Shown here: positions 13,487 through 64,000 of the stretch, piece by piece
How the letters are laid out: each line of letters begins with the position of its first letter
How positions within the stretch are numbered: position 1 is the stretch's first letter
NCBI GenBank assembly: GCA_018435605.1
Contig: JAHDNF010000004.1
Location: 184,542-248,541 of the forward strand
DNA length: 64,000 bases
From: a bacterium
Lineage (GTDB): Bacteria; Auribacterota; Auribacteria; Auribacterales; Auribacteraceae
Direction of reading: 5' to 3'
Translations under genes and position numbers: made by a program
The notes under the pieces: model-generated
What the model was told of the DNA's origin: nothing
The model's input: only the letters and a program-made list of their open reading frames with translations
Database searches by the model: none

Positions 13487-13577
13487 TATTTTGATCTTTT
13501 AAATCAAAAATTGAATCTTAACTATAATATATTTCATAAATATCTCTCATCAACCTACAACTGGAAAGGTCTGCACA

Positions 13578-15530: not shown

Positions 15531-15541
15531 CGGAGTTTGAT

Positions 15542-22621: not shown

Positions 22622-22639
22622 AAATAAGGAGGATCTCTC

Positions 22640-23134
22640 ATGCCGCTGAGGAAATTCGAGAAAGTATGCGAAATAATTAACACGTATAACAAAGACAAAT
22701 CAAAACTTATTCCCATCTTGCAGGATGTGCAAAGGGAATACAGATACCTGCCGGAAGAAATTATGGCGTACATCGCCACTTCGCTGGATATACCGCCTGC
22801 AAAGGTATTTGGGGTAGCGTCGTTTTACGCCCATTTTGCTTTGGAGCCGAGAGGCAAACATATTATAAGGTTGTGTTGCGGAACCGCCTGTCATGTTAAA
22901 GGTTCGCTAGGACTGCTCGAAGCGTTGCGAAAACGCCTGAACCTTACCGCCGAAAAACACACTACGGACGATATGCTGTTCACCATCGAAACCGTTTCAT
23001 GTCTTGGGGCGTGCGGTTTGGCGCCGGTCATGGTTATAAATGAAGATGTATACGGACAAGTCACACCGGTTATGGCGGTAAACTTAGTGGAAAAAATTAT
23101 GATAGAGGAGAACGGCAATGAAACAGGCGCTTAA
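22640..23134 (+). CDS. hydC: HydC (NuoE-like [2Fe-2S] subunit) of trimeric bifurcating-type [FeFe]-hydrogenase
   Basis: CCGTACHVKGS ... CLGACGLAPV NuoE-family cysteine motifs. AAGGAGG RBS. Confidence 0.85.
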   Translation: MPLRKFEKVCEIINTYNKDKSKLIPILQDVQREYRYLPEEIMAYIATSLDIPPAKVFGVASFYAHFALEPRGKHIIRLCCGTACHVKGSLGLLEALRKRLNLTAEKHTTDDMLFTIETVSCLGACGLAPVMVINEDVYGQVTPVMAVNLVEKIMIEENGNETGA

Positions 23135-25022: not shown

Positions 25023-25023
25023 C

Positions 25024-27033: not shown

Positions 27034-27047
27034 CCGGAGGCATACCG

Positions 27048-40839: not shown

Positions 40840-42774
40840 TCACTTCACTTCTTCATAGTCTGCGTCAATATAATCGTCGCTGTGACCTGCAGGCTCGTTT
40901 TCAGTTTTCTGAGATGTTTGCTCTGCTCCGGCGGTATGGGTTTGATACGCTCCCGCAGACGCTCCCTGTTGCGTGCCTGCCCTCTTGTAAAGTTTAGTAG
41001 ATACTTCCTGCCATGTTTGCTGAAGCGCGTTCATAGCAGGTTCGATCGCCGATGAATTACGCTCTTTGACCGCTTTTTCGAGGTCGTTTTTTAGTGATTC
41101 AAGTTTAGATCGGTCGGCAGGATCGATCTTATCACCGTTTTCTCTGAGCAGTTTATCCGTCTCGAAAGTCAATTGTTCCGCGCGGTTGATTTTATCCACG
41201 GTTTCTCGTTGCTGTTTATCTTCATGAGCGTACTGCTCTGCTTCTTTAACCATCCGGTCGATATCTGTTTTACTAAGTCCGCTTGACGCTTCGATACGGA
41301 TGGATTGTTCTTTTCCTGTGGCTTTATCTTTGGCGGATACATGCAGTATACCGTTTGCGTCAATATCAAACGTGACTTCGATCTGCGGTATTCCACGCGG
41401 CGCGGGCGGGATATCGGTCAACTGAAACCGCCCGATAGATTTGTTATACGCGGCCATTTCTCTTTCGCCTTGCAAAACATGTATATCCACAGCGGTCTGA
41501 TTATCCGCGGCAGTCGAGAATACTTCCGATTTTTTTGTCGGTATCGTTGTGTTTCGCTCAATTAGTTTAGTAAACACTCCGCCCTTGGTTTCCACACCAA
41601 GCGACAGCGGTGTAACGTCGAGCAGTAAGACATCTTTGACCGCGCCGGACAACACACCGCCCTGAATACTCGCGCCAATGGCAACAACTTCGTCGGGGTT
41701 GACTCCTTTATGCGGTTCCTTGCCGAACAATTCTTTGACAATCTGCTGAACAGCAGGCATACGTGTCTGTCCGCCGACGAGTATCACTTCGTCAATATCG
41801 CTTGCCGACAATTTGGCGTCCTGCATAGCCTGAATACAAGGCTTCTTTGTACGTTCAAGCAAACCGGATACAAGCTGTTCGAGTTTCGAGCGTGTGAGAG
41901 TAATATTGAGATGTTTCGGGCCGCTGGAATCGGCAGTGACAAACGGCAGATTAATTTCCGTAGACATTGACGAAGACAGCTCGCATTTGGCTTTTTCAGC
42001 GGCTTCTTTGAGTCTCTGTAGCGCCATCTGGTCTTTGCGAAGGTCTATTCCGTTATCCTTCGTAAATTCTTCCGCAAGATAGTTGATTATAGCATCGTCG
42101 AAATTGTCGCCTCCCAGATGCGTATCTCCGTTGGTAGACAATACCTCGAAAACACCCTCTCCCAACTGTAATATGGAAATATCGAAAGTTCCTCCGCCAA
42201 GGTCGAAAACCGCTATTTTCTCGTCATTCTTCTTATCCAAGCCGTACGCCAGAGCGGCGGCAGTCGGTTCGTTAATGATTCGCAACACATCAAGACCGGC
42301 TATCGCGCCCGCTTCTTTTGTCGCCTGCCTCTGTGCGTCGTTGAAATACGCCGGAACGGTAATTACCGCCTGCGTTACTTTGCTACCCAGATAATCTTCG
42401 GCGGTTTGCTTCATTTTCTGCAAAATCATAGCGGATATTTCCTGCGGTGTGTAATGCTTGCCTTCCAGCTCTACGACCGCGTTACCGGCCTTGTCGGCTT
42501 TTACTTTATAGGAAACCGATTTCTCTTCTTCTTTAACTTCCGTATACTTCCTGCCCATAAACCGCTTTATGGACATTATAGTATTGCCGGCGTTGGTTAT
42601 TGCCTGCCGTTTAGCCACAGTTCCCACAAGCCGTTCGCCGTTTTTAGTAACCGCCACGACCGACGGGGTAGTGCGCCCTCCTTCAGCATTGGTTAGCACC
42701 ACAGGTTCTCCGCCTTCCATCACAGATACACATGAGTTGGTAGTACCCAAGTCTATTCCGATTACTTTACCCAT
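40840..42774 (-). CDS. dnaK: Chaperone DnaK (Hsp70), copy 1, not in a grpE/dnaJ operon
   Basis: [30 protein letters not shown] signatures. Confidence 0.9.
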
Positions 42775-42981: not shown

Positions 42982-45570
42982 TCAATTTGTTACAATAAAT
43001 AAAAACTGAGAGTCATTGAACGTAACTTCAACACGGTTTCCTTCCGCTATGCTACCTTCAAGCATGCGTATAGCCAGCGGATTCAAAATTTCGCGCTGGA
43101 TTGCACGTTTGAGCGGACGCGCTCCAAACAGCGGATCGTAAGCGATTTTAGCAAGATGATCCTTAGCGGCGCTACTTAGAGATATTTCGATTTTTTTATC
43201 TTCAAGCCGTTTGGCCAGATGATGAAGCTGGATATCGATAATATGCTTTATGTCATCCTGCGTAAGGTTGTTAAATACCACTATTTCGTCGATTCGGTTG
43301 AGAAATTCCGGCCTGAACTGTTTGCGTAGCAGTTCGAGCATCCTGTCATTGAGTTCCTGACGGGGACGGTTTGACAGATCATGCACAAGATGGCTTCCTA
43401 AGTTTGAAGTCATGATGAGCACCGCGTTCTTGAAATCGACAGTACGCCCTTTGTTATCGGTAAGACGCCCTTCGTCGAGAATCTGCAGAAAAATGTTGAA
43501 TACGTCATGATGAGCTTTTTCAATTTCATCAAACAACACCACTGTATACGGTTTGCGCCTAATCGCCTCTGTAAGTTGTCCGCCTTCCTCGTAACCCACA
43601 TATCCGGGCGGCGGCCCGACCAGCCGGGATACCGAATGCTTTTCCATATATTCGCTCATATCAATACGAATCATTGCTTTTTCATCGTCAAACATGAAAT
43701 AAGCCAGTGAACGCGCAAGTTCGGTTTTGCCGACTCCTGTAGGACCGAGAAAAATAAACGAGCCTATCGGGCGGTTAGGATCCTGAATATCCGCTCGAGC
43801 ACGCCGTATCGCGTCTGATACCAGCTCTACCGCTTCATCCTGCCCGACAACCCGTTCTTTAAGACGGCTTTCCATGGCGATAAGTTTCTGTATTTCACCT
43901 TCCAGCATACGCGAAACAGGAATACCTGTCCATTTTGAGACAATTTCCGCTATATCCTCCTCGTCTACTTCTTCTTTGAGCATGACGGATTCTTTTTGAA
44001 GCTGAGCGAGTTTCGCGTTGGCATCTTCAAGGTTTTTATTTAACTGCGCCCGTTTGCCATAGCGTATTTCCGCCACTTTCTCGTAGTTGCCTTCCCTCTC
44101 ATAACGCTGTTCTTCACTATTGAGCTGGTCGAGTTGTTCTTTGATAGACCGTATATGCTCAATAATTTCTTTTTCCTGTTGCCAGCGTGATTTTAGCAGA
44201 GCACTCTGTTCTTTTAGTTCCGCAAGTTCCTGTTCTATCTTCTGACGCCGTTCTTTTGAGGCGGCGTCTTTTTCTTTTTGCATTGCCTGACGTTCTATTT
44301 CCAACTGCATAATTCGCCGTTCTATTTCATCTATTTCGGTAGGCATGCTGTCAATTTCTATACGCAGTTTGGATGCGGCTTCGTCAATGAGGTCGATAGC
44401 TTTATCAGGCAAAAACCGGTCTGTAATGTATCTGTCTGACAATGATGCCGCCTGAATTATAGCTGTATCTGTGATGCGAACTCCGTGGTGAACTTCGTAT
44501 TTTTCTTTCAAACCACGCAAAATAGAAATCGTATCTTCAACCGACGGCGGCTCGACCATTACAGGCTGGAAACGGCGTTCCAGCGCGGCGTCTTTCTCAA
44601 TATATTTCCTGTATTCGTCAAGCGTTGTAGCTCCGATACAGCGCAGTTCGCCGCGCGCAAGAGCAGGTTTGAGCATATTTGACGCATCGACCGAACCTTC
44701 CGCAGAACCTGCTCCGACCAGCGTATGCAATTCATCGATAAATATGATTATTTTCCCGGAGGCTTCCTCTATCTCTTTAAGCACCGCTTTGAGACGGTCT
44801 TCAAATTCTCCGCGGTATTTTGCGCCGGCTACCATAGCTCCGATATCGAGAGCGATAAGCGATTTGCCGCGCAACCCTTCGGGTATGTCGCCGCTGACCA
44901 TCCTCTGAGCAAGGCCTTCCACAATAGCTGTTTTACCCACGCCCGGTTCGCCGATTAACACAGGATTGTTTTTTGTCCTGCGCGATAATACCTGCATGAG
45001 CCTGCGTATTTCGTCGTCCCTGCCTATTACAGGATCGAGTTTTCCTTGCCGCGCCAGCGCGTTCAAATCTCTGCCGAACCTCTCGATAGCCTGATATTTG
45101 CTTTCCGGATTCTGATCGGTTACCCGTTGAGAACCCCTGATGGTTTTCAAAACGGCAAGCAGGCTGTCATGAGTAATTTTGTATCCGGAAAACAGTTTGC
45201 CGGCCTCCGATTGCGATTCCTGCGACATCGCCAGAAGAATATGTTCTGTGCTGATGTATTCGTCTTTAAGTTTTTTAGCTTCTTTTTCAGCAGAGTCAAA
45301 AATTTTCTGCAGTTCCGACGACAGATACAAATTATTTGCCTGACCATATACCTTTGCCAGTTTGCCGAGTTCCTGCTGGCAGTCGCTGTCAACCCTTGCC
45401 GGTTGAATTTCCAGCTTCTGCAAGATCGGGGGTATCAATCCGTCTTCCTGTTCCAGCAACGCTTTTAGCAAATGCAGGGAAGATATTTCCTGATGATTGT
45501 TATCACGGGCGATACTTTGTGCGTCCTGTATGGCTTCCTGTGTTTTGACTGTCAGTTTGTCGTATCTCAT
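42982..45570 (-). CDS. clpB: ClpB disaggregase (AAA+; two NBDs with middle coiled-coil domain)
   Basis: [18 protein letters not shown]-domain, Walker A GEPGVGKT and GPTGVGKT, long M-domain. Start set at the MRYDKLT methionine; the ORF-track extension was rejected. Confidence 0.9.
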
Positions 45571-45589: not shown

Positions 45590-46426
45590 TTACCGCAAAG
45601 CATACAGGCGTTTGACACGATCCTCAGTAGACGGATGAGTACTGAACAACCGCGCCAGCGAACTGCTTCTAAATGGATTGACGATAAATAGATGGGAAGT
45701 TACATACGATCCCGATTGCAACGGATTATGTCGTACGCTCCGTTCAAGTTTTTCAAGAGCGCGAGCCAGTCCAACAGGCGATCCGGCAAGTTCAGCTCCG
45801 CCTTTGTCTGCGGCGAATTCGCGAGAACGTGAAACCGCCAGCTGTATGATTACAGCCGCAACAGGCGCAAGTATGGATAACACCAGCATGCCAAGAACAT
45901 TGTCGTTGCGGTTGCGCCCGCTTCCGAAAAACATCAACGAGTAACGCAACATGCTGGCTATAAGTGTAATAGCCCCTGCTATCGTAGCGGCTACAGTGCT
46001 AATAAGACTGTCGTGATGTTTTATGTGGCTCAACTCGTGCGCAAGCACACCTTTGAGCTCTTCTTCAGATAACAAATGGATTATTCCTTGCGTAACCGCC
46101 ACAGCGGCATGACTCGGATTTCGTCCGGTAGCAAACGCATTCGGCGTCGATTGAGGAAGTATGTACAATTTAGGCATAGGCATACCAGCCCGCTGTGTCA
46201 AATCCTCAACCATGCGATAAATTTCCGGCGCTTGGTTGCGCTCAAGCGGCTGGGCGCGGTACATTTTGAGAACAATGGTATCGCTCCACCAGTAACTTGC
46301 AAAATTGATAGCCATGGCTATGACGAAAAAGACAATCGCTCCCTGTGATCCTCCCACATATTGCCCCATAACTACCAACAATCCGGTCAATAACCCCAGT
46401 AAAAGCGTTGTTTTGATGGTGTTCAT
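45590..46426 (-). CDS. htpX: Zinc metalloprotease HtpX (M48 family)
   Basis: [10 protein letters not shown] HExxH motif with flanking TM helices. 19-nt gap to clpB suggests an htpX-clpB operon. Confidence 0.85.
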
Positions 46427-46641: not shown

Positions 46642-48924
46642 TTACTGAATAATTTTAAGTACGATGAATGTCAGGTCGTCGTCAAGAGGCTGGTGTCCGA
46701 TGTATTCATGCAGATACCAAAACAATATGGAACTGATTTCCTGCGCGGATTTGTCTTTGTTTTCGCGAATCACCTGCTGAATTCTATGCATACCGAGAAA
46801 TTCTTTCTGATTGTTTGTCGCTTCGGTTAACCCGTCGGTGTAAAACAGATAGATATCGCCTTTTTGTAACGGTATAACTATTTCGCCGTAGTCCGTTTTT
46901 TCAAATAAACTCAGGAATAACCCGTCGGTAGTGATAGCTATAAACTCATCCTCTTGAGCGCAGTACCGCATTGAAGGATTATGACCGGCGCTGGTATAGT
47001 GAAGCATTCGTTCTCTTGTATTTACAATGGCGTAAAGCATTGAAACAAAATTATTTCGTGGAATGTTTTTGAAAAGGAATGCGTTGAGCGCTTGAACAAC
47101 TTCTTTGGTAGAAACGATGCCGATTGACGAAAGCTGTGCACAGGTCTTTACCAGCGTCATAATAAATGCCGCAGATACTCCGTGACCGGTAACGTCAGCG
47201 ACGATAAATCCGGTATTATCGGCATCAATGGAAATGTAATCGTAATAATCGCCGCCTATCATTTCCGCAGGGGTATACATTGACGCTACTTCAAAAACTT
47301 CGCTTTCAGGCGGTTCTTTGGGTAAAAGTTCCATCTGCATTTCCATAGCTATTTTCATATCAGCCTCCAGTTTAGTTTTCTGGATAGTCTGCTGATACAA
47401 AGTAGCGTTTTCGATAGCTACGGTGGCCATACTGGCAAGGGTTGTAAGAGCTACGATGTCGTCCGGACTGAAACTATCGCAAAAAAGTTTATTGATGACC
47501 ATCATCGTTCCTATAACACTGGTTGCCGTTTTGAACGGGATACAAGCAAGGGCGTTAATGTTTAGATTGCGATCTTTGAGAATATCGCGGTCGAGTTGCT
47601 CGTCTACTTCCTGCTGATTCAGAATAACTACTTCGCCGGACTCAAGCACTCTCTGGTAGATCGGTTTGCCTCCGTTATCCTTGAAACGGATAGCCTTGAT
47701 TACCTCAAATCCGAGACCGAACTCGATTTTTTTTGAAATCTCGCCGTTTTCCAGCAGTAAAGCGGCGCCCACTTCCGCTCCAATAGAATTGATGATCATG
47801 TCGACCAGTGTCGCCAGCAGGCGGTTGGGGTCATGGATGGTGGTGAGAAGTTTGCCTGCTTCGTAAAACTTATGAAGTTGAACTGTGCGGTCTTCTATTT
47901 TTCTGTCCAGTTCGGCGTTGGAATGGATGATTTGGTTCTGTATTTCTTCCAGCTCTGCGCTTAGTTTTATTATCTTTCCGGTCATTCGAATATTATCGAT
48001 TATAGTGGTCAGCAAATCGTTGAGCGAGATAATCAAATCCTGCTCAAATGCTGAAAACGGTTCTCCGGTTTTCCGGCTAACTATCAAAGCGCCTATATAG
48101 TTGTTCTTTGAATAGAGCTTTTTTATAATTACCGTTTCGCGCGAAGGTTCGTCCTGTTCAACCGCATTTCCCGCATGCTTGTGACAGAAAAACGACAGTT
48201 TCAGCTTAGAGTAGTTGAATTCACAGGTTTTTTGAACGCTACACATGATATGTTCGATAAACACATCATCCGCATTGGATGTTCTGTCTATAAGCAGTTC
48301 TTTTGAGTCTGCCATATATATGGCCAGTATATCATAAGGTATTGTAGCCCCGAGTAGCTTGAATATCTGTTCTATAAGCTCGTCAGGATTTTCGATATTG
48401 TTGGCGTGTTTGTTGATGAGATTAATAACGTTTTTCTCAAGCAGTTTGTATTCTAGTATTCTGCTGATACGCTTGAGAATATCAATTTCCGACAATCGTT
48501 TTCCGTCGCGATATGCCGGAGACAACTGGGGGTTGCGTTTTTGAACCTGCTCATGGATAATTGACAACAGGGCGAACTGGTCGATATCCCTGCTTATTAC
48601 TTCATCGATCTCAAATTGGCTTTCCGTGCGGTGTGAATGGGAATTGTTTTCAGGTTCAATCCAAAGAAGCCTGATATGGCGTGTCGCGGAATCGAACTTT
48701 AAAATCCTGCAGGTTTCCTCGCCGGTAAGCTGGGGCAATTGCGGGTCAATAATTACAATATCCGGCCAATGCGAATAAATACACCTCAGTACATCTATGC
48801 CGTCATGAGCTATAACTACATCGTAACCGAATAGATTCAAGTTATGCCTGTAGCGCTTGATCAGTTTTTCATCCGTCATAGCGATCAAAATTTTAGATTT
48901 TTTGATCTCTGGTAAACAGCTCAA
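46642..48924 (-). CDS. Response-regulator receiver - GAF - PP2C (SpoIIE/RsbU-like) phosphatase
   Basis: N-terminal REC-like domain (ILIAMTDE ... IVIIDPQLP), central GAF-like regions, C-terminal GGDYYDYI ... ADVTGHGVSAAF ... FYTDGLTEA PPM motifs. Confidence 0.7.
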   Translation of the reverse strand: MSCLPEIKKSKILIAMTDEKLIKRYRHNLNLFGYDVVIAHDGIDVLRCIYSHWPDIVIIDPQLPQLTGEETCRILKFDSATRHIRLLWIEPENNSHSHRTESQFEIDEVISRDIDQFALLSIIHEQVQKRNPQLSPAYRDGKRLSEIDILKRISRILEYKLLEKNVINLINKHANNIENPDELIEQIFKLLGATIPYDILAIYMADSKELLIDRTSNADDVFIEHIMCSVQKTCEFNYSKLKLSFFCHKHAGNAVEQDEPSRETVIIKKLYSKNNYIGALIVSRKTGEPFSAFEQDLIISLNDLLTTIIDNIRMTGKIIKLSAELEEIQNQIIHSNAELDRKIEDRTVQLHKFYEAGKLLTTIHDPNRLLATLVDMIINSIGAEVGAALLLENGEISKKIEFGLGFEVIKAIRFKDNGGKPIYQRVLESGEVVILNQQEVDEQLDRDILKDRNLNINALACIPFKTATSVIGTMMVINKLFCDSFSPDDIVALTTLASMATVAIENATLYQQTIQKTKLEADMKIAMEMQMELLPKEPPESEVFEVASMYTPAEMIGGDYYDYISIDADNTGFIVADVTGHGVSAAFIMTLVKTCAQLSSIGIVSTKEVVQALNAFLFKNIPRNNFVSMLYAIVNTRERMLHYTSAGHNPSMRYCAQEDEFIAITTDGLFLSLFEKTDYGEIVIPLQKGDIYLFYTDGLTEATNNQKEFLGMHRIQQVIRENKDKSAQEISSILFWYLHEYIGHQPLDDDLTFIVLKIIQ

Positions 48925-48930: not shown

Positions 48931-49476
48931 TTACTCCTTCAAAGTTGCATAACTCTTAAACGCGCTGTGATTTTGCTTATGTACGTCCTTGCATATATCC
49001 AAATCGTTCTCGATCGATTCAAGCGAACACAATATTTCCTCCAATAGATTTTGAAGGCGGTCTATAATCTGAGTGTGTTCCACAGATGTCTGCATATTTT
49101 CCGCATGCTGAGCGTCGACGGTCTGCAATAACGACGACTTTCGTATCTGTTCACTGATAATATGCAGGCTGTTGCGCATTCCGGCAGACGTTTTTTCCGC
49201 ATCGTGTTTGATATGATCCGGAATAAACCGGCAGGTATACCGCCAGCTTATTTCAAATATAATAAACATCTCGACGCCGACCGTTAAAACGTGTACCCAT
49301 ATAGCATCCGTAAAAGTAGCCAGCAATGTGTGCAACTCGACAAATATGGTTACCATCAGGCTTACAGCCACCACATTGACGACTGTCAACACGAACTCAG
49401 GCCTAAAAGGCGTATGTCGTTTCATATTATCCTGCTCATTTAATTTCGAATCTTGCGAACCCTTTGTCAGGGGCAT
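48931..49476 (-). CDS. Hypothetical small membrane/coiled-coil protein upstream of the RR-PP2C gene
   Basis: One or two hydrophobic helices (FVLTVVNVVAVSLMVTIFV, IWVHVLTVGVEMFIIF) and a C-terminal helical region. No recognisable motifs. Confidence 0.3.
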   Translation of the reverse strand: MPLTKGSQDSKLNEQDNMKRHTPFRPEFVLTVVNVVAVSLMVTIFVELHTLLATFTDAIWVHVLTVGVEMFIIFEISWRYTCRFIPDHIKHDAEKTSAGMRNSLHIISEQIRKSSLLQTVDAQHAENMQTSVEHTQIIDRLQNLLEEILCSLESIENDLDICKDVHKQNHSAFKSYATLKE

Positions 49477-53439: not shown

Positions 53440-55893
53440 ATGGATAAAAGAAAATCTTCACATATCGAAAGCGCGTCTTCCATTCTTGAGAAACGCAATA
53501 AGGCGTTCAGAATACTTTATAACACTGTTATAGAAGTTACCCAAGCTCAGGACGACAATATATTTACCATTCTGACGCGCAATCTGCGCGAACTTTCGCA
53601 GGCCACAACTACTGCAATAGCAGTGGTTGACCGTAATTCCATGTCGATCGCACTTAAATCTGTAACCCATGATGGTGAGGATATTGTAATTGACGCTCAC
53701 CTACCCGCTCACACGGCATACATAACCCCTGAAATACTGAAAATTTTTTCGCAGGCGCTCATCCATGAGGTTAAAGAGAATGAAATCAACCTTGCTACAT
53801 TGTTTCCCGGCTCCTGTCTTGCGGATATGGTGCTCTCCTCCGATTCGGTCATTTATAATACGACGTGCATGCGCAATGAGGACGTATTCGCATTCGGACT
53901 GATTCATTTCAGCGATAACCGGCATATAAAAATGAAGGATATGGCCGATACGTATCTTGGCCTTGCGAGCGTAATTATACAGCGGGCTATGGCAGTGAGG
54001 GAATTAAATGTATCAAAACAGTGGTTTAAAAATCTCCTTGATTGTTCTCCTGTGGGTATTATGGTAGTCGACCAGAACCGCAAGATTGTTGAAGTCAACA
54101 ATGCCGCCATTCAAATGGTCGCCGGTTCAAAAGAAAGTATCACCGGCAAATCCTGCAAGGAACTAATCTGTAACGACAAAAGCGAAAGATGCCCTATTTT
54201 TGACGACGGGAAAACAATCAATCAGGATGAACGACTTATCAAACATACCTGCGGACGCAAAGTTCCGATTCTCAAAAACGCTATACCTGTCGAAATAGAT
54301 AATAAGAAGTACATTATAGAAACAATTGTCGATATCAGCGAACGCAAAAAAGTTGAAGAAGAACTTAAAAAAAGCGAAGAGACATTCAAATCTATTTTCG
54401 AAGTGGCCAACGATGCTATTTTTATACACAGAATACCGGACGGCAGAATCTTGAACGTAAATCAGAAAGCACTGGAAATGCTCGGATATACGAAAGAAGA
54501 AACTCTCAATATGTCGGTAGGTGAAATCAGCTCCAACGAAACGCCTTACACCGACACCGAAGCGCTGGCTTATATTGCTAATGCCATGAAATCACCCCAG
54601 TTGTTCGAATGGAAATTACGCCGTAAAAACGGCGACGTTTTTTACACGGAAGTCAACCTTAACAAGGTGTCCATTCTTGGCGAGGATCGTATTATGGCGA
54701 TCATTCGCGATATAAGCGAACGGCGCAAAATGGAAGAAGAACTGCTCAAAATCCGTAAACTGGAATCGGTTGGCGTTTTGGCAGGCGGAATAGCGCACGA
54801 TTTCAACAATCTTCTGACAGTGATCATCGGAAATATATCCGTAGCGCAGATGGACATCGACCCGCGAGACGAAAGCATGATGTCGCTTCTCGATAACGCC
54901 GCCAAAGCCGCTCTCCGCGCCAAAGATCTAAGCGGCCAGCTACTGACATTCTCAAAAGGCGGCACGCCGGTTAAAAAAGCTACCTCAATCCAAAATATGG
55001 TAATGGAATCGGTCAATTTCATGCTCAAAGGCTCTAATGTTAAATGTGTATTTTCCATTCCCGACCGATTATTTCAGGTTGAGATAGACGAAGGACAGAT
55101 AAGTCAAGTTATATACAATCTTGTTCTCAACGCCGTTCAAGCGATGCCCGCAGGCGGCACACTGCGCGTTTCATGCGAAAACAGTTTATTACCAGTCGAC
55201 TACACAGGACCTTCGCGCAAACTGTCGGAATGCGTGAAAATCAGCGTCGCCGACGAAGGCATAGGCATACCGGAATCAATTATCGGCAAAATATTCGACC
55301 CGTATTTCACCACCAAGGATAAAGATTCGGTAAAAGGCACGGGACTCGGATTATCAACCTGCTATTCTATCGTCAAAAAACACGGCGGTATGATCGAAGT
55401 AAAATCTAAAGTCAATGAAGGGTCTGTATTCAATGTATATCTTCCTGCGTCAACAACTGAAAATGTGAACGACACTCCAGTGCAGGAAGTAAAAATAGTA
55501 AGGGGCGCCGGACGGGTGCTGGTTATGGACGATGAACCTATGGTTCGATCCATCATGGGCGATATTCTAAAACGACTGGGCTATGAGACCGCGTTCGCCA
55601 GCAACGGCTCAGAAGCTATGGAAATGTACAACGAAGCCTACCATAATGATGTTCCTTTCGATGTAGTCATTATGGACCTTACCATTCCCGGAGGTATGGG
55701 AGGCAAAGACACCATGGAAAAATTATACAGGCAGTACCCGAACGTCAAAGCCATAGTATCCAGCGGTTACTCAAACGACCCTGTGATGTCCGACTACAAA
55801 CTCTACGGATTCAAGGGAGTAGTTAAAAAACCGGTCAGAATTAACGAATTGAGCGCAATGTTATACAGCGTTATGCATTCTTCGGACAGATAA
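53440..55893 (+). CDS. Hybrid sensor histidine kinase (GAF/PAS sensor domains - HisKA - HATPase_c - REC)
   Basis: H-box GGIAHDFNNLLTVIIGN. ATPase G-boxes (ADEGIGIP, GTGLGLS). C-terminal receiver (VLVMDDEPMV ... VVIMDLTIPGG). Confidence 0.8.
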   Translation: MDKRKSSHIESASSILEKRNKAFRILYNTVIEVTQAQDDNIFTILTRNLRELSQATTTAIAVVDRNSMSIALKSVTHDGEDIVIDAHLPAHTAYITPEILKIFSQALIHEVKENEINLATLFPGSCLADMVLSSDSVIYNTTCMRNEDVFAFGLIHFSDNRHIKMKDMADTYLGLASVIIQRAMAVRELNVSKQWFKNLLDCSPVGIMVVDQNRKIVEVNNAAIQMVAGSKESITGKSCKELICNDKSERCPIFDDGKTINQDERLIKHTCGRKVPILKNAIPVEIDNKKYIIETIVDISERKKVEEELKKSEETFKSIFEVANDAIFIHRIPDGRILNVNQKALEMLGYTKEETLNMSVGEISSNETPYTDTEALAYIANAMKSPQLFEWKLRRKNGDVFYTEVNLNKVSILGEDRIMAIIRDISERRKMEEELLKIRKLESVGVLAGGIAHDFNNLLTVIIGNISVAQMDIDPRDESMMSLLDNAAKAALRAKDLSGQLLTFSKGGTPVKKATSIQNMVMESVNFMLKGSNVKCVFSIPDRLFQVEIDEGQISQVIYNLVLNAVQAMPAGGTLRVSCENSLLPVDYTGPSRKLSECVKISVADEGIGIPESIIGKIFDPYFTTKDKDSVKGTGLGLSTCYSIVKKHGGMIEVKSKVNEGSVFNVYLPASTTENVNDTPVQEVKIVRGAGRVLVMDDEPMVRSIMGDILKRLGYETAFASNGSEAMEMYNEAYHNDVPFDVVIMDLTIPGGMGGKDTMEKLYRQYPNVKAIVSSGYSNDPVMSDYKLYGFKGVVKKPVRINELSAMLYSVMHSSDR

Positions 55894-56074: not shown

Positions 56075-56399
56075 AACCCCTGCAGATCACGAAACAATAT
56101 TTCTGTAAATTCTGTTATAAAGGTTGACGTTGTTTAACAGATCGACATTGAGATAGTTTTTTTCGGTAGTCCTTTTGTCATGGATTTTCACAAAAATCAC
56201 CGTTAGTCACTACCTTTTTTTGTTAAAATCGATTTCTCTTGACATCACCGCTTGTTCATATAAAAATAGACAGTTACTACAGCCGGATTGGCAATATAAA
56301 TAACCTGCTGATATAGATAGGATAACTATCATGGTTGTTTATATAGCATGAATAACGGTAGGTAATAATCGGCACAGACAGTAGATTTTAAGGTGTCCC

Positions 56400-56936
56400 A
56401 TGAATAGAATCGAATTGGCATGGATGAAAGATAAGGCGGTAATCAGGGTTGTGGGAAAAGGAAGTTTTCTCAACAGCCGCAACTTCAAAGAAGCTGTCAT
56501 TGCATTGCTGGCAAGATCTGATAAAACGATCGTAATCGATTTCGCCGACTGTAGCGGCATGGACAGCACGTTTATCGGAGTTCTAACCGGCATAACGCTA
56601 AGAGAATTGAAAAAAAGCGACAAACAAATGCTACTAGCCAATCTGGGCAAATGCAACAGGGAGTTGCTGGAAACTCTGGGAGTAATCCGGTTTTTCAATG
56701 TGATGAAAAACGACTGTACATTCGATGCCGAATTCAAATCGGTTGCCGATACCCCCGAAGACCCCGACGGAGCCATAGAACAAATAAAACATATCCTCGA
56801 AGCTCACGATAACCTGATCAAAGCCAACGAGGAAAACATCGACCGATTCAAGCTGGTTAAACAAACGCTCGAACAGGAGCTCGCCCAAAAAATAGATGAA
56901 AAAAAACAACGCAACGGCAAGAAAAATCAACAATAA
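56400..56936 (+). CDS. STAS-domain protein (anti-sigma-factor antagonist / SpoIIAA-like) with C-terminal coiled-coil extension
   Basis: VIDFADCSGMDSTFIGVLTGI resembles the SpoIIAA/RsbV phosphorylatable-Ser region. ~100-aa STAS core plus a Lys/Glu-rich tail. Confidence 0.55.
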   Translation: MNRIELAWMKDKAVIRVVGKGSFLNSRNFKEAVIALLARSDKTIVIDFADCSGMDSTFIGVLTGITLRELKKSDKQMLLANLGKCNRELLETLGVIRFFNVMKNDCTFDAEFKSVADTPEDPDGAIEQIKHILEAHDNLIKANEENIDRFKLVKQTLEQELAQKIDEKKQRNGKKNQQ

Positions 56937-57056
56937 TTGCCGGATATCTTCTTTCCCCAGTTGCCAAAACGGGTGAAAGGTTGCCCTAAAAGGGAGGAAT
57001 AACATATCGTCACCTCTATTTTACTGTCTTTCAGCGTATTACTTCTTATTTTCACG

Positions 57057-58433
57057 TTGCGCCTCATTCAACGATGCCGCGACCTTGAGATTTTGCAACG
57101 CTCACTGATCGAAGAACGCAATATCATGGTCGATTTCCTTCGCGAAATAGGTAGCGCTTTTTCCGACTCACTGCAAATCGACGACCTGCTCACCATCGTT
57201 TTGCGAACAGCCAAAAGAATAACCGATGCCAACGCCGGCGTAATTTATCTGGTCGAAGACGACGGCAATATGTCCGCGCGGGTCATAGAAGGGCTGTTTC
57301 CGCCAATGGTGGAAGTAGGCTCCAACACGGAAACAAAATGGACTAGCAAACAAAAGTATATCCACGACATAATCAAATCGTATCCGGTTCACCGCGGAGA
57401 AGGAATACTCGGCAAGGTACTCGAAGATGGCCGGGCGGTATGCTTGGACAGCAAAGATATAAATACCAGCCAACTGATACCACGCTACAAATCCGATTTT
57501 TTACGCATCAAAAGCCTGATGGTAGTACCGCTAAAGCTGAAAAACAGGGTGCTGGGAGTCATGGCTGTAGTAAATAAACGATACCATGAAGTGTTCCGGC
57601 CGCAGGAACTGGCTTTGCTCGAATCGCTGGCCGAACAGGCGGCTGTGGCGTTGATAAACGCACGCCTGTCAATACAGCTGGCCGAACAAAAACAGTTGGA
57701 ATGGGAACTGCGCGTCGCTTCCGATATCCAAAATCTATTGATACCAAAAAAGATACCGCCTATACACGGCTATGAGTTGGCGGCAATCAGCCAGCCGGTT
57801 AGAAGCCTCGGTGGCGACTATTACGATATAGTTAAACTCGATTACGACCGATACGGAATAATCATCGCCGACGTGTCCGGCAAAGGTGTACCCGGAGCGA
57901 TCACCATAGCCATTTTCCGAAGCCTGTTTCGCAACTACGCCGTACGTTTCGAATCGCCGGCAAAAGTGCTGGTCGAAATCAACAACTGGCTCTACGGCGA
58001 AATGCAGGAAGATATGTTCATCACAGCCACATACGCAATCCTGTATCCAAAAGAAGGACGGCTCGTATGGAGCAGAGCCGGACATGAACCGATACTGTAC
58101 TATTCGAAAAAAGAAGAGGCAATTCACGCTTTTTCAGGAATGGGAGTCATGATGGGCATGACTTTCGGAAAAGATTTCGACTCGTTCCTCGAGGAAAACG
58201 AACTCTGCATCGGATCAGGCGACCTTATCACCCTATACACAGACGGTGTTATCGAAGCCCAAAACAAGGCAGGCTGTGAATTCGGTCGCGACAACCTATG
58301 TCAGGTCATTCGCGCAAACGCAGACAAAAAACCTCCTAAAGTACTGCAAAGCATCACATCTCAGGTTTCAAAGTTTTCAGGTTTGTCAAATTTTACCGAC
58401 GACATTACACTGCTGATACTCAAACGACTCTAA
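57057..58433 (+). CDS. GAF-domain PP2C (RsbU/SpoIIE-like) serine phosphatase
   Basis: GAF-like region, then GGDYYDIV ... ADVSGKGVPGAITIA ... LYTDGVIEAQN. Start uncertain (TTG 57057, or ATG 57126). A strong AGGGAGG RBS at 56991-56997 precedes an in-frame hydrophobic stretch. Confidence 0.65.
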   Translation: MRLIQRCRDLEILQRSLIEERNIMVDFLREIGSAFSDSLQIDDLLTIVLRTAKRITDANAGVIYLVEDDGNMSARVIEGLFPPMVEVGSNTETKWTSKQKYIHDIIKSYPVHRGEGILGKVLEDGRAVCLDSKDINTSQLIPRYKSDFLRIKSLMVVPLKLKNRVLGVMAVVNKRYHEVFRPQELALLESLAEQAAVALINARLSIQLAEQKQLEWELRVASDIQNLLIPKKIPPIHGYELAAISQPVRSLGGDYYDIVKLDYDRYGIIIADVSGKGVPGAITIAIFRSLFRNYAVRFESPAKVLVEINNWLYGEMQEDMFITATYAILYPKEGRLVWSRAGHEPILYYSKKEEAIHAFSGMGVMMGMTFGKDFDSFLEENELCIGSGDLITLYTDGVIEAQNKAGCEFGRDNLCQVIRANADKKPPKVLQSITSQVSKFSGLSNFTDDITLLILKRL

Positions 58434-58600
58434 CACCGCCTGCGCTACCGCCAAAGAAAATAAACCTCTGGAAAGAAAATGAGTCAAAGCGAAACGTGAA
58501 ATATATCTTGACAACAACTGCCATGATAATTAAATATAAATAGCTCGATTTTAGAAAATATTTTAATGGAACACTGTGTTTGTTTTGGAGGAAGCAGGGG

Positions 58601-59227
58601 ATGAAAAAAGACAGGAAACACGAACAACAACAAAATGCTCAAAACGACGAGAAGACTGTCGAACAGGAATTTGACGAAAACCAAGTCCGGCAAGAACCCC
58701 AGGATACCGATCAACAGGAAGAAACTCAAGATCAAGACGGTACTGCCGCTCCTGAAGACGAGAAGCAGAAAGATTATTTCGACCAGATGCTTCGCATTCA
58801 GGCCGAGTTCGATAATTACCGAAAACGGATTAACCGTGAACGCGACGAATTCCGCAAATACGCGGTAGAACAACTTCTTCTGGAACTTTTGCCTATAATA
58901 GACAATTTCAGACTCGCTTTGACTTCGCTCGAAGAACATGTTGTGCCGGAAAATCACAAGTTTTTCGAAGGAGTTGAGATGATATACCGTCAGTTATGCC
59001 GTACTCTGGAAAAAAACGGCGTACAGGCTATCGAAACTATTGGAAAACCGTTCGATCCGTGCTACCATAATGCACTGCAACAAATAGAAAGCTCGGATGT
59101 GCCGGAAAATCATGTGCTACATGAAGTAGCAAAAGGTTACATGATGCACGGCAAACTGCTTCGTCCGGCGGCGGTTGTGGTGGCTAAAGAACCCGCGTCC
59201 GACGGTTCGCAACAACAGCAGGATTAA
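58601..59227 (+). CDS. grpE: Nucleotide-exchange factor GrpE
   Basis: FDNYRKRINRE, LLPIIDNFRLAL, HEVAKGYMMHGKLLRPAAVVVAK. GGAGG RBS 9 nt before the ATG at 58601. Confidence 0.8.
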   Translation: MKKDRKHEQQQNAQNDEKTVEQEFDENQVRQEPQDTDQQEETQDQDGTAAPEDEKQKDYFDQMLRIQAEFDNYRKRINRERDEFRKYAVEQLLLELLPIIDNFRLALTSLEEHVVPENHKFFEGVEMIYRQLCRTLEKNGVQAIETIGKPFDPCYHNALQQIESSDVPENHVLHEVAKGYMMHGKLLRPAAVVVAKEPASDGSQQQQD

Positions 59228-59416: not shown

Positions 59417-61363
59417 ATGGCAAAAGGTAAAGTAATCGGTATCGATCTGGGAACTACCAACTCGTGCGTAGCCGTTATGGAAGGCGGTGAAGCTGTTGTT
59501 ATCCCAAATGCCGAAGGCGGGCGTACCACGCCGTCTGTAGTGGCGTTTACCAATACAGGCGAACGGTTGGTCGGGTTGACAGCCAAACGGCAGGCAGTCA
59601 CCAACTCGGATAACACCATTTTTTCCATAAAACGATTCATGGGACGCAGGTACGACGAAGTAAACGAAGAAATGAAACTCGTTCCCTATAAGGTTATAGA
59701 TAAAAACGGGCTGGTCGGCATATCCGTCCGAGATAAGGAATACACCCCGCCGGAAATATCGGCCATGACGCTCCAAAAAATGAAACAAACCGCCGAAGAT
59801 TATCTCGGAACTACCGTTACTCAGGCGGTAATTACCGTTCCCGCTTACTTCAACGACAGCCAGCGGCAGGCTACAAAAGACGCCGGCAAAATAGCGGGGC
59901 TTGAAGTATTGCGCATAATCAACGAACCGACTGCCGCGTCTCTGGCATACGGACTGGATAAGAAACACGACGAGAAAATCGCTGTTTACGATCTTGGCGG
60001 CGGTACGTTCGATATATCCATACTACAACTTGGCGACGGGGTATTCGAGGTGCTGTCAACCAATGGAGATACTCACCTAGGCGGCGATAACTTCGACCAA
60101 AAAATAATCGACTGGATGGCTGAAGAATTCAAAAAGGACAACGCAATAGATCTGCGCAAAGATAAAATGGCGCTCCAGCGTTTGAAAGAAGCCGCGGAAA
60201 AAGCCAAATGCGAACTTTCTACCACCATGCAGACCGAAATAAACCTGCCTTTCGTCACAGCTGACGCAAGCGGGCCTAAACATTTATCGCTTACATTGAG
60301 CCGAGCTAAACTGGAACAACTTGTAGCAGACCTCCTTGAACGAACAAAAAAACCATGCCAGCAGGCAATAGCCGACGCAAAACTATCGGCCGGCGATATT
60401 GACGAGGTTATCCTCGTAGGCGGACAAACACGAATGCCGGCTGTACAGGCAATAGTCAAACAAATATTCGGCAAGGACCCTCATAAAGGAGTCAATCCAG
60501 ACGAAGTTGTGGCTATAGGCGCGGCAATTCAGGGCGGCGTGCTTGCCGGTGAAGTCAAAGACGTTCTCCTGCTCGACGTTACACCGCTGTCGCTCGGTAT
60601 AGAAACTCTGGGCGGAGTGTTTACACGTCTGATCGAACGCAATACAACCATACCATGCCAGCGGAAACAAATTTTTTCGACCGCGGCGGACAATCAGCCG
60701 GCAGTGAGTATTCATGTCCTTCAGGGCGAACGCGATATGGCCGCTTATAACCGTACATTGGGGCGCTTTGACCTGACAGATATACCGCCAGCTCCGCGCG
60801 GCATTCCGCAAATCGAAGTCTGCTTCGATATCGACGCCAACGGCATTCTTCACGTTTCCGCGAAAGATATGGGAACGGGAAAAGAACAGAAAATCCGCAT
60901 AGAATCGTCAAGCGGGTTGTCCGAATCGGACATAGATAAAATGGTCAAAGAAGCCGAATCCCATTCTGAAGAAGACAAAAAACGAAGGGAACTGATCGAA
61001 ACTAAAAATCAAGCCGATACCCTCGCTTACAGCGTGGAAAAAACCTTAAAAGAACACGGCGATAAAATATCATCCGACGAAAAAAGCAAGGTTGAAGCCG
61101 CTCTGGCCGATTTACGAGAAGCGTTAAAATCCGACGATATGGATGCAATCAAAAAGGCAATGGAAAACCTCACGCAGGCATCGCATAAAATCAGTGAAAT
61201 GCTCTATCAGTCAGCCGCTAAAGAGGCTCAACAGCAACAAGGCGCGGCAGGCGGTAGCGGTGCGGCCAACGCCGGGAGCGCAAATGAATCCCCACGCGAT
61301 AAAAAAGAAGACGAAGGTGTAGTCGACGCCGATTACGAAGTAATGGACGACGACAAAAACTAA
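59417..61363 (+). CDS. dnaK: Chaperone DnaK (Hsp70), copy 2, in grpE-dnaK-dnaJ operon
   Basis: [30 protein letters not shown]. 648 aa. Confidence 0.9.
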
Positions 61364-61384: not shown

Positions 61385-62533
61385 ATGGCTAAACGCGATT
61401 ACTACGAAGTTCTGGGAGTGTCAAAAAACGCAACCGAAGACGAACTGAAAAAAGCGTACCGAAAATTGGCTTTGAAATATCATCCCGACCGCAACCCTGA
61501 CAACAAGGAAGCGGAAGAAAAATTCAAAGAAGCGGCCGAGGCATACGAAGTCCTGTCCACTACGGAAAAACGCAAACGATACGATCAGTTCGGACACGAA
61601 GGCGTCAGCTCTACATTCGGACAATCCGGATTTCAGTGGTCGGATTTCAGCCATTTTTCCGATGTGGAAGATATTTTCGGCGACCTGTTCGGCGGAGGCG
61701 GAATTTTCGGCGAGATCTTCGGAACAGGCCGCAGAGGAAGTAGTTCCCGCAGAGGAGTGCGCGGAAACGATTTGCAGTACAATATGGAAATATCTTTTGT
61801 GGAAGCCGCATCCGGATGTACCCGTGAGATATCTTTCAAAAAGAAATCCGTCTGCGAAACATGCAACGGCGAAGGCGTAAAACCCGGAACCAGCAAAGCA
61901 ACATGCCAGCAGTGCGGCGGAGCAGGCCAGATTCGTCTTTCTCAAGGGTTTTTCTCCATAAACCGTACCTGCGACCAGTGCGGAGGTACAGGTTCGGTAA
62001 TAAAAGATCCATGTCCAACCTGCAAAGGAAGCGGACGGGTTCTCAAAGATAAAAAACTGTCCATACATATTCCTGCCGGCATCGAAAACGGTTCCAAACT
62101 GAAATTGAGCAACGAGGGTGAAGACGGCGCATACGGCGGACCGCCGGGCAACCTTTATGTAGCTATACATGTTACTCCTCACCCGTTTTTCACAAGACAG
62201 GGCAATGATATTGTCTGCGAAGTTCCTATAAGTTTCCCGAAAGCGGCTCTGGGCGGTGAAGTTGAGGTGCCTACCCTTGACGGCAAGGTGAAACTCAAAA
62301 TACCGCCGGGCACTCAAAGCGAAAAAATATTCCGAGTGCGCGGCAAGGGAATACCAGATTTGCGCGGGTACGGAAAAGGCGACCTGAAAATAAAAATCGT
62401 GGTCGAAGTGCCCACAAAATTGACCGCCGAGCAAAAAGAACTGCTGGAAAAATTCGCGCAAATCAGCGGTGAGGATATTTATCCGATGATGCACTCGTTT
62501 TTCAATAAGGTGAAGCATATTTTCAAAGGTTGA
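61385..62533 (+). CDS. dnaJ: Co-chaperone DnaJ
   Basis: J-domain (DYYEVLGV ... KYHPDRN), G/F-rich linker, four CxxCxGxG zinc-finger repeats. Confidence 0.9.
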
Positions 62534-62542: not shown

Positions 62543-63292
62543 TTGAGACAACGACGTTTTTTTTCTCCGGCCAAATGCTGGCAATCCGACCGCATTATCC
62601 TTGAAGGCGAACAGATCCATCATGTTTTCCACGTACTCCGTTTGCGCAAGGGAGACACTGCCGTATGTTTTGATGAAACAGGCCGATGCGCTCAAACGCG
62701 CATATTTCATATAGACAGCGTTAGCGGTATTTTAGAAATAGTCAGCCTCCTTCCTGCCAACCAATCATCCGGCGCGCGGTTGACGCTTGCACAGGCTGTT
62801 GTCAAATCTCAACGTATGGATATGATTATTCAGAAAACCGCGGAACTGGGCGTAGATTCCCTAATCCCTTTTTTCTCGCAAAATACAGTTGTCGAACTCG
62901 GCACGGAACGACAGGACACCAAACGGCAACGCTGGCGTAAAATCGCGGTCGAAAGCGCCAAACAGTGCGGCAGAAATACCGTTATGGAAATCGGCGAATT
63001 TGCGAGTGCGGACACGCTCGCTTGCGGGTTGAAATCCTATGACCTTGCTATTCTCGGATGCCCATGCGCTAAGCCCCTTGATATTTCCAGACTCATCGCT
63101 TCGGCTGATAATGTAATCGTAATCATAGGGCCTGAAGGCGGATTTACCGACCGTGAAATCTCAGCCTTTACGGTAGCTTCAAACTGCGTGCCGTGGCGGT
63201 TTTCCAATACGGTTTTGCGCGCGGAAACCGCGGCGTTAAGCGCGATAGCCATTATTCAATACGCTTTGATTACCTGCCGGCAGGATGTGTGA
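62543..63292 (+). CDS. rsmE: 16S rRNA (uracil1498-N3)-methyltransferase RsmE (SPOUT family)
   Basis: N-terminal PUA-like region (HHVFHVLRLRKGD) and C-terminal IIGPEGGFTDREI SPOUT motif. Confidence 0.7.
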   Translation: MRQRRFFSPAKCWQSDRIILEGEQIHHVFHVLRLRKGDTAVCFDETGRCAQTRIFHIDSVSGILEIVSLLPANQSSGARLTLAQAVVKSQRMDMIIQKTAELGVDSLIPFFSQNTVVELGTERQDTKRQRWRKIAVESAKQCGRNTVMEIGEFASADTLACGLKSYDLAILGCPCAKPLDISRLIASADNVIVIIGPEGGFTDREISAFTVASNCVPWRFSNTVLRAETAALSAIAIIQYALITCRQDV

Positions 63293-63296: not shown

Positions 63297-64000
63297 ATGA
63301 GAACAACCTTTTGCGTATCCACTTACGGTTGCAAAGTCAATCAATATGAATCGCAGTTGATCAGAGAAGGGTTTATCGCCGCAGGTTGCGCGGAAACAAA
63401 TTCTACCGACGCCGATATCGTGGTAGTGAACACGTGTACGGTTACAGCTCAAAGCGACGGAAAAATCAGACAGGCTGTCCGGCGCATACGGCGTTCGAAT
63501 CAGAATAATACCATAATTATCACCGGTTGCGGAGCCAACCGGCATGCGGATTTGTTCGGAGACGATGAAAATATATATCTTGCTACGGGCAATTCATGGA
63601 AAGAACGCTATACGCAGTTACAGAGCGTAATATTGCGTGTCATGTCCGGCGACATACATCCATATAGTCCCGAAACAAATTTTTCCATACCGGAATCCAT
63701 AACCGGATTCGGCAGACACACACGCGCGTTCGTAAAGGCTCAAGACGGGTGCGACTCATTCTGTTCGTACTGCACAATTCCTTTGGTTAGAGGCAGGTCG
63801 GTCAGCAGAGACCTTGGAGAAGTGTGCGAAGAAGTGAACCGACTGCTCGAATCGGGTTACAAGGAAATCGTACTGACAGGAATACATCTCGGACAGTACC
63901 GCGACTCCAACCACAACAGGTTAGACGCATTACTGCGAGCATTAACCGGACTGCCGTACCGGTACAGACTGCGCCTGAGTTCCATAGAACCGCAGGATAT
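63297..64000 (+). CDS. MiaB/MtaB-family radical-SAM tRNA methylthiotransferase (3' end beyond window)
   Basis: TYGCKVNQYES N-terminal MTTase motif and CDSFCSYCTIP radical-SAM CxxxCxxC. Continues in frame to the end of the window. Confidence 0.7.
   Translation, partial: MRTTFCVSTYGCKVNQYESQLIREGFIAAGCAETNSTDADIVVVNTCTVTAQSDGKIRQAVRRIRRSNQNNTIIITGCGANRHADLFGDDENIYLATGNSWKERYTQLQSVILRVMSGDIHPYSPETNFSIPESITGFGRHTRAFVKAQDGCDSFCSYCTIPLVRGRSVSRDLGEVCEEVNRLLESGYKEIVLTGIHLGQYRDSNHNRLDALLRALTGLPYRYRLRLSSIEPQD

Follow-up and report, generated by a model that had tools for sequence, protein, structure and literature searches.

In Bacillus subtilis, the chaperone genes grpE, dnaK and dnaJ belong to an operon of the order hrcA-grpE-dnaK-dnaJ-prmA-rsmE-mtaB. 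What stands at the head of such an operon when hrcA is missing is the question raised by a 64-kb stretch of contig JAHDNF010000004.1 (hereafter the window, meaning the whole stretch analysed), which derives from a metagenome-assembled genome (MAG) of an uncultured Candidatus Auribacterota organism, a phylum placed by NCBI taxonomy in the Planctomycetes-Verrucomicrobia-Chlamydiae (PVC) group. Here, grpE is preceded by the genes of a STAS-domain protein with a C-terminal extension (hereafter the long STAS) and of a SpoIIE-family serine phosphatase with GAF and PP2C domains (GAF-PP2C). The pair belongs integrally, at the 5' end, to a conserved PVC gene block, STAS-PP2C-grpE-(dnaK)-dnaJ-rsmE-mtaB, and occupies the slot that hrcA fills in most other bacteria.

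The gene list of the window was obtained from Pfam scans and a map of open reading frames (ORFs), which bear out the claim of the original prediction that the pair lies directly 5' of grpE-dnaK-dnaJ on the same, forward strand. The block opens with the 178-aa long STAS (56400-56936; PF01740, E 2.8e-9) and the membrane-anchored phosphatase (57006-58433, called as 57057-58433; PF07228, E 1.7e-43, and GAF, E 6e-19), followed by grpE (58601-59227; Pfam GrpE, E 3e-48, and the gene call of loci L001/L002), whose ORF opens at a TTG at 58580 and which encodes 208 aa from the ATG at 58601. Further downstream come dnaK (59417-61363, 648 aa) and dnaJ (61385-62533, 382 aa), both identified by ORF translation and gene call, the 16S rRNA methyltransferase gene rsmE (62543-63292; PF04452, E 6e-44) and an mtaB-like gene for a radical-SAM methylthiotransferase (63297-64000; UPF0004 and Radical_SAM, with the gene call of L001/L002), which extends past the end of the window. 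By gene calls and Pfam in L001/L002, the order grpE-dnaK-dnaJ-rsmE-mtaB is that of the Bacillus-type dnaK operon minus prmA.

The two upstream genes had been taken for a partner-switching-type pair, and this holds for both products. In an alignment of STAS homologues (A1), the motifs CxGMDSTF and HILEAH..L..N..F are invariant, and profile alignment to PDB entries places Ser56, within the first of them, at the phosphoserine of TM1442 and SpoIIAA; the long STAS is accordingly aligned at the residue that is modified in known antagonists, and phosphorylation on Ser56 is predicted on sequence grounds. The AlphaFold2 model (pLDDT 90.4) consists of a STAS core and a C-terminal helical hairpin of residues 124-176, in which H136, L139, N146, F150, V153 and L157 are invariant in A1. 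The top Foldseek matches, SpoIIAA, TM1442 and RsbV, cover the core only (about 103 residues), and the hairpin is without counterpart in the solved antagonist structures found by this search. The long STAS is a distinct, large and uncharacterised family; at E<=1e-10 it comprises 1689 clusters at 50% identity, of which the best 150 are about 160-190 aa long and nearly all match the whole profile.

The phosphatase retains the PP2C metal-binding motifs GDYYD, DVSGKG, YTDG and DDIT intact in its translation. In every lineage its N-terminus consists of one hydrophobic helix, then basic residues and a coiled-coil-like linker, and because the helix is kept in all orthologues, the enzyme is regarded as a membrane-anchored protein with a cytoplasmic GAF-PP2C portion. 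The called TTG start at 57057 cuts off this N-terminal transmembrane (TM) helix (IVTSILLSFSVLLLIFTL). The reading frame is interrupted by a TAA at 57000-57002, and no ATG, GTG or TTG codon is found ahead of the conserved helix; the forward-strand segment 56992-57008 contains the Shine-Dalgarno sequence GGGAGGA and a probable non-canonical ATC start at 57006. The same arrangement, a Shine-Dalgarno sequence followed after 6-8 nt by ATA, ATC or ATT, occurs in five Auribacterota lineages, with ATC used in the window and either ATA or ATT in L004, L009, L010 and L011. Across the 24 codons of the putative N-terminal extension, the window and L009 differ by 14 synonymous and 2 nonsynonymous changes, and the called TTG is replaced by CTC in L009. 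The orthologues of Verrucomicrobiota start at ATG. The true start of the Auribacterota phosphatase is thus probably an isoleucine codon, in the window the ATC at 57006.

The vacancy of the hrcA slot was supported by matched positive and negative scans. A hidden Markov model (HMM) of HrcA, built from control ORFs lying between CIRCE and grpE, two of which were verified as PF01628, gave no match among all six-frame ORFs of the window and none in a set of 91 related loci of about 1.5 Mb. The CIRCE inverted repeat TTAGCACTC-N9-GAGTGCTAA was not matched in the window at <=3 mismatches, nor before any grpE at <=4 mismatches in the 1.46 Mb of related loci that were scanned for it. The control set consisted of 80 diverse unrelated grpE loci taken from a metagenome scan with GrpE, none of them from Auribacterota, and there the HrcA model matched in 64 of 80, which have hrcA in the slot that it typically fills directly 5' of grpE, and 26 CIRCE sites were found in 24 of 80, about 1.1-1.4 kb upstream of grpE. 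The negatives are meaningful because the same scans succeed in the control loci. Neither the long STAS nor the GAF-PP2C phosphatase occurs in any of the 80 controls. HrcA has been reported absent from Verrucomicrobia, Lentisphaerae and Planctomycetes (PMC4989314).

Other known heat-shock elements were likewise absent from the relevant spacers. The claim that the window has no hrcA, no CIRCE and no convincing sigma32 promoter was confirmed within its limits by HMM and pattern scans: sigma32, sigma54, sigmaB, HAIR and CtsR patterns are missing from the spacers before STAS, PP2C, grpE, dnaK, htpX and the second dnaK gene (dnaK2), no spacer matches a CTTGAA-N13-17-CCCCAT-like promoter, and the sole sigma factor of the window scores higher as RpoS or RpoD than as RpoH, giving no sign of an RpoH-type regulon there. 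Rfam had no match anywhere in the window. The 5' leaders of grpE, dnaK and STAS fold no better than shuffled sequences (z +0.8, +1.0 and -0.9), offering no indication of RNA thermometers, and the PP2C-grpE and grpE-dnaK spacers contain no inverted repeats that could serve as operators.

The linkage between the pair and the chaperone genes is deeply conserved. A profile made from alignment A1 and scanned against one genome per GTDB species detected the long STAS in at least 570 species, mostly Verrucomicrobiota (Akkermansiaceae, Luteolibacter, Haloferula, Chthoniobacterales), Kiritimatiellia/Pontiella, Victivallales, Sumerlaeota and Auribacterota. Synteny was followed by tblastn, with gene spacing measured, in 80 genome loci; STAS and PP2C are adjacent in nearly all of them, and the long STAS is linked to grpE in 19 of 80, about ten of the unlinked loci being too short for judgement. 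The block is kept in all the other Auribacterota lineages that were sampled, four of them in the genome scan: L009-L012, with L004 and L005 repeating the arrangement of L012, carry STAS-PP2C-grpE-dnaK-dnaJ-rsmE with STAS proteins 60-78% identical and with upstream genes that differ in each.

Outside the phylum, further arrangements were recognized. Ten loci of the Verrucomicrobiota type (L026, L039, L041, L045, L050, L051, L061, L065, L076 and L081) have STAS-PP2C-grpE-dnaJ-rsmE, dnaK being missing from the STAS operons of Verrucomicrobiota, which contain grpE-dnaJ only; L065 and L076 have a 4-nt overlap of PP2C with grpE, and L026, L045 and L050 a gap of 39-54 nt, L045 being the cultured Haloferula sargassicola. 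Four loci of the Kiritimatiellia type (L023, L024, L053 and L077) encode, in this order, the long STAS, a canonical 125-aa antagonist (short STAS), a 153-aa RsbW-like kinase and grpE-dnaJ-rsmE, and in L051 all four signalling genes lie 5' of grpE, so that an RsbW-like kinase is present in five orthologous operons. In the Victivallales locus L069, the long STAS stands directly 5' of grpE-dnaJ. Nearly all linked loci have rsmE after dnaJ. Since the flanks are unrelated and stop and start codons overlap in some lineages, the conservation is of the operon type and points to functional coupling rather than chance. A conserved functional coupling of a partner-switching-type module to GrpE/DnaJ(/DnaK) in PVC bacteria is therefore supported.

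The pair also exists elsewhere. Many loci of Akkermansiaceae, Luteolibacter and Pontiella have STAS-PP2C alone, apart from grpE, and a solo long STAS is found in Sumerlaeota and one member of Chthoniobacterales (L035, L078 and L082), with neighbours that proved unrelated in L078 and L082. In the Akkermansiaceae MAG locus L015 (12004-13259), STAS-PP2C is followed by about 1.25 kb without an ORF of >=90 aa and then by dnaK. A conserved protein of 177-223 aa is encoded just 5' of the long STAS in Verrucomicrobiota and Kiritimatiellia (L024, 9409-9981; L065, 9220-9891; L076, 4093-4626), ending in ..S(F/Y)LW(E/N) in L065 and L076 and in ..KSAAWR in L024; the L024 version has no Pfam match, and the protein is not present in the Auribacterota window.

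Transcription signals were then read from the spacers. A promoter-like element, TTGACA-N17-AAAAAT, lies before STAS on the forward strand (56239-56267, 10/12 matches), and the form tctcTTGAC(A/T)-N17-AT-rich is found before STAS in four of five Auribacterota lineages (the window, L004, L009 and L011). Two inverted repeats flank this element, one at 56180-56233 with 17-nt arms just upstream of the -35 hexamer and one at 56291-56347 with 15-nt arms in the leader. A second promoter-like element, TTGACA-N17-TAAATA, was read from the sequence before grpE on the same strand (58508-58536), and the PP2C-grpE spacers of all five Auribacterota lineages, 150-211 nt long, carry TTGACA-N17 with an AT-rich hexamer. 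The sole k-mer common to upstream regions, TCTTGACA, is shared only by STAS and grpE and is absent before htpX, dnaK2 and dnaK. Terminator prediction gave nothing for the stretch between PP2C and grpE. Because of this, and because grpE has a promoter-like element of its own, two routes of transcription are probably open to the Auribacterota chaperone genes, read-through and a sigma70-type promoter of their own, and grpE transcription independent of STAS-PP2C is likely in this organism. Several verrucomicrobial operons have a TTGAC(A/C)-N17-type element just 5' of STAS, and there the chaperone genes of the block must be co-transcribed with the module.

What the module does for the chaperones can be approached by analogy. 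The regulators HrcA, HspR, CtsR and RsbV-RsbW-SigB are encoded within the chaperone or stress operons that they control, and by analogy with such embedded regulators, stress signalling that tunes the chaperone regulon would be the most likely role of the module. The locus may accordingly be read as the input half of a partner-switching-type relay acting on a chaperone/stress regulon, a proposal to which an even chance is given. The data establish the gene content, the intact motifs, the fold, the depth of the linkage and the local absence of hrcA and CIRCE; each step of the signal flow, and chaperone transcription as its output, is inferred. Membrane or protein-folding stress, or a ligand of the GAF domain, would activate the membrane-anchored phosphatase as the sensor, which would dephosphorylate the phosphorylated STAS protein at Ser56 as the switch. 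The dephosphorylated STAS protein would then bind a partner, for which the operon-encoded RsbW-type kinase/anti-sigma factor is the candidate in Kiritimatiellia-type operons; in Auribacterota this partner may be encoded outside the window or may be a different protein. Partner binding would alter how active or how stable a sigma factor or another effector is, and the chaperone/stress regulon, the module's own operon included, would be tuned in turn.

Several observations weigh against this proposal. Neither an RsbW-type kinase/anti-sigma factor nor a second STAS protein was detected in the 64-kb window by tblastn and HMM, and no sigma factor gene belongs to the STAS-PP2C-grpE operon. Both promoter-like elements, that of STAS and that of grpE, belong to the ordinary sigma70 type (TCTTGACA-N17-AT-rich) and not to the sigmaB type, with no operator or alternative-sigma motif found, and since grpE has its own conserved predicted promoter in Auribacterota, co-transcription of the chaperone genes with STAS-PP2C is not required there. 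The pair standing alone in Akkermansiaceae, Luteolibacter and Pontiella is evidently able to work without grpE linkage. Gene neighbourhood indicates coupling and not its direction, and hrcA or rpoH could lie elsewhere in the genome, beyond the window. The sigB-like wiring of chaperone expression that had been suggested for this organism was hence retained in part: the genuine pair, its position in the hrcA slot, the linkage across Auribacterota, Verrucomicrobiota, Kiritimatiellia and Victivallales and the RsbW-like kinase of Kiritimatiellia-type operons speak for it, whereas the kinase and sigma gene missing from the window and the operon, the sigma70-type promoters and the separate grpE promoter do not.

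A possible output is found on the reverse strand of the window, about 19 kb from the STAS operon. An RpoS-like sigma factor had been predicted at 36817-37653, and NCBIfam agrees: the 278-aa protein scores 286 bits as RpoS, 260 as RpoD C-terminal and 168 as RpoH, all below the cutoffs, by which it is a group-2-type sigma factor and not sigma32. A PPDK gene lies near it on the same reverse strand. As the output of the module, this factor is a candidate, unproven. Also on the reverse strand is a second phosphatase gene encoding a REC-GAF-PP2C protein of 760 aa (46642-48924, Pfam; orthologues 49-72% identical), preceded by the gene of a small hydrophobic/coiled-coil protein of 181 aa (48931-49476) with no Pfam or NCBIfam match. 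An ORF of 147-173 aa likewise precedes REC-GAF-PP2C after a gap of a few nt in L090 (8546-8989) and L091 (1273-1794), and none is called in L089; the small protein is likely to be a partner of this phosphatase. The genes htpX (45590-46426, M48 protease; Pfam, E 9e-37), clpB (42982-45570, 862 aa by gene call) and dnaK2 (40840-42774, 644 aa by ORF translation) follow on the same strand, so that the window holds two full-length DnaK paralogues 72% identical to each other, one in the grpE operon (59417-61363) and one after htpX-clpB.

The original prediction placed this second phosphatase immediately upstream of htpX-clpB-dnaK. The same-strand order is present in the window; a fixed link is not, as the arrangement changes in relatives. 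Orthologues adjoin htpX-clpB-dnaK2 and/or a PPDK-sigma-apt-GGACT block in varying arrangement, being oriented divergently in L090, at a distance of 5.5 kb in L091 and beside PPDK-sigma without htpX in L089. An operon of REC-GAF-PP2C with htpX-clpB-dnaK was rejected on the variation of orientation and distance among four lineages; it is a recurring neighbourhood, with weaker evidence than the STAS-grpE linkage. The hybrid histidine kinase (PAS-PAS-HisKA-HATPase-REC, Pfam) that was said to lie between the two PP2C groups is indeed there, on the forward strand at 53440-55893, with 506 nt between it and the STAS gene downstream. It was rejected as a conserved partner, not being kept 5' of STAS in other Auribacterota. 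In the Chthoniobacterales MAG locus L078 (7916-10483), the solo long STAS is preceded by a histidine kinase that shares 45% identity with the hybrid kinase of the window over the C-terminal half of the latter, which is maybe a coincidence.

The sigma factor and the second phosphatase lend some weight to another explanation, rather unlikely on balance, in which the pair is co-expressed cargo, a general-stress unit that rides on the chaperone operon and has its output elsewhere, for example in the stability or activity of an RpoS-like sigma factor (cf. Pseudomonas RssB/RssC and Shewanella CrsR/CrsA), while chaperone transcription is controlled otherwise. In NCBIfam, the long STAS matches RssC best (E 4.5e-9), over a stretch that includes the C-terminal extension, and REC-GAF-PP2C matches RssB_Pseudo best (E 4e-24); RssB and RssC jointly mediate the ClpXP degradation of RpoS (PMC12923157, PMC12143880). 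An RpoS-like sigma factor is encoded in the window and beside the REC-GAF-PP2C orthologue of L089, many genomes of Akkermansiaceae, Luteolibacter and Pontiella have the pair away from grpE, and grpE has its own predicted promoter in Auribacterota. However, the RssC and RssB_Pseudo scores are far under the cutoffs (36 vs 250 bits and 85 vs 700 bits), the phosphatase adjacent to STAS is a TM-GAF protein with no REC domain, and co-expression poorly explains the exact position and the overlapping codons kept across lineages at phylum and class level.

A bolder form of chaperone control deserves mention, unlikely as it is judged to be: in PVC bacteria other than the chlamydiae, which are reported to lack HrcA, the long STAS/PP2C pair might be the primary regulator of the DnaK system. 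The membrane-anchored phosphatase would read proteotoxic or membrane stress, the phosphorylation state of the hairpin-bearing STAS protein acting directly on RNA polymerase and sigma factor or on DnaK-GrpE-DnaJ with no classical anti-sigma kinase. If true, this would be a third, phospho-relay logic of heat-shock control beside sigma32 and the repressors HrcA, HspR and CtsR.

Chaperone availability is sensed via DnaK in the cases of sigma32 and HspR, and a direct link of this kind, though improbable here, would need no anti-sigma kinase: the hairpin of the long STAS might bind DnaK, DnaJ or GrpE depending on phosphorylation, and might thereby serve the chaperone cycle as a regulator or co-factor, or else be a sensor that chaperone availability titrates. 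The Victivallales locus L069 is consistent with it, where the minimal conserved unit is long STAS and grpE-dnaJ alone, as are the invariant residues of a hairpin unmatched in solved antagonist structures, the translational coupling, which suggests a dosage co-ordinated with GrpE, and the operon of the window, which has neither kinase nor sigma partner. Conversely, an interaction between STAS and chaperones is purely hypothetical, the conserved phosphorylatable serine implies a kinase somewhere, and STAS proteins are not known as co-chaperones.

It is highly improbable that there is no functional link and that canonical hrcA/CIRCE or rpoH elsewhere runs heat shock, the gene order being inherited or a chance product of a PP2C-rich genome, for although three SpoIIE-type PP2C genes in the window imply that such genes are common here, the view of the genome spans 64 kb and the promoter-like elements are ordinary, the block is kept amid unrelated flanks with some genes overlapping, it occurs in 0/80 control grpE loci as against hrcA in 64/80, 0/3 chaperone operons of the window have CIRCE, and sister phyla are reported to lack HrcA (PMC4989314). 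The coupling of the pair to the chaperone genes, with a relay that tunes their regulon as the preferred reading, gives the best account of the locus.

Three other regions of the window were noted. The third SpoIIE-type PP2C gene (28775-29932) comes directly after the gene (27048-28778) for a PAS-containing, HydS-like sensory [FeFe]-hydrogenase, and genes for a Rex-like regulator and for a HydC/HydB/HydA-like bifurcating hydrogenase precede the HydS-like gene, so that the region 21977-29932 resembles a regulatory cassette for hydrogenase. In a second [FeFe]-hydrogenase cluster (5264-10708), one gene encodes a 1038-aa fusion of a NuoF-like subunit with a GltD-like pyridine-nucleotide oxidoreductase domain. 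A CusCBA-like heavy-metal RND efflux system (12161-19426) comprises an outer-membrane factor, an HlyD_D23/HMBD adaptor and a 1314-aa pump of the AcrB family.

Partner-switching modules and dnaK operons are each well known. In the searchable literature, no prior description was found of their conserved fusion in a superphylum as a STAS/PP2C and grpE/dnaK arrangement, of the long-STAS family with its hairpin or of the replacement in the hrcA slot, and the Auribacterota genome paper makes no mention of chaperones or sigma factors. Verrucomicrobiota, Lentisphaerae, Kiritimatiellia and candidate phyla include abundant bacteria of gut, soil and water, and we know of no account of how heat-shock chaperones are controlled in Verrucomicrobiota, Lentisphaerae, Kiritimatiellia or Auribacterota. 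The conserved and sometimes translationally coupled module is a concrete candidate for chaperone control or the sensing of folding stress in PVC phyla, and an experimentally approachable one, the operon being present in the cultured Haloferula sargassicola. In addition, genomic context ties the long-STAS family, with at least 1689 clusters at 50% identity, to protein homeostasis.

Among the closest known systems, the module resembles RsbV-RsbW-RsbU and SpoIIAA-SpoIIAB-SpoIIE of the Bacillus sigB and sigF systems in its STAS antagonist with a phosphoserine in a DS(S/T) motif, in the SpoIIE-family PP2C encoded beside it and, in Kiritimatiellia-type operons, in the RsbW-like HATPase kinase with a canonical antagonist. 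It differs from them in that the Auribacterota operon is without kinase or sigma gene, that the long STAS adds a conserved helical hairpin of roughly 55 residues, that the phosphatase has a TM anchor and a GAF domain instead of an RsbT-binding or multi-TM domain, and that the genes lie in a grpE-dnaJ operon with sigma70-like promoters instead of a sigma operon. With the hrcA-grpE-dnaK-dnaJ(-prmA-rsmE-mtaB)/CIRCE operon of Bacillus, Chlamydia and many others, the locus shares the downstream order and a regulatory-type gene at the 5' end; unlike there, the slot is filled by a phospho-signalling pair and not by a DNA-binding repressor, hrcA and CIRCE being missing.

RssB (REC-PP2C) and RssC (STAS) of Pseudomonadaceae likewise form a two-gene unit of PP2C and STAS without an adjacent kinase, with an RpoS-like sigma factor nearby (PMC12923157). 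The scores of the window's proteins are nevertheless far below the equivalog cutoffs, the RssB model giving 36 bits for GAF-PP2C and 85 for REC-GAF-PP2C against a cutoff of 700; moreover, the adjacent phosphatase is of the TM-GAF type without REC, the context is a chaperone operon, and the ClpXP/RpoS role is one described for the Rss pair. Chlamydiae, for their part, keep hrcA/CIRCE for the dnaK and groE operons and have scattered rsb genes that are not joined to grpE. Nonetheless, their Rsb network (RsbU, RsbV1/V2 and RsbW) belongs to the same PVC superphylum, has no dedicated alternative sigma factor in its cluster and, by gene types, combines a membrane-anchored PP2C, two STAS antagonists and one RsbW-type kinase just as the Kiritimatiellia-type operon does (PMC4652624 and general knowledge).

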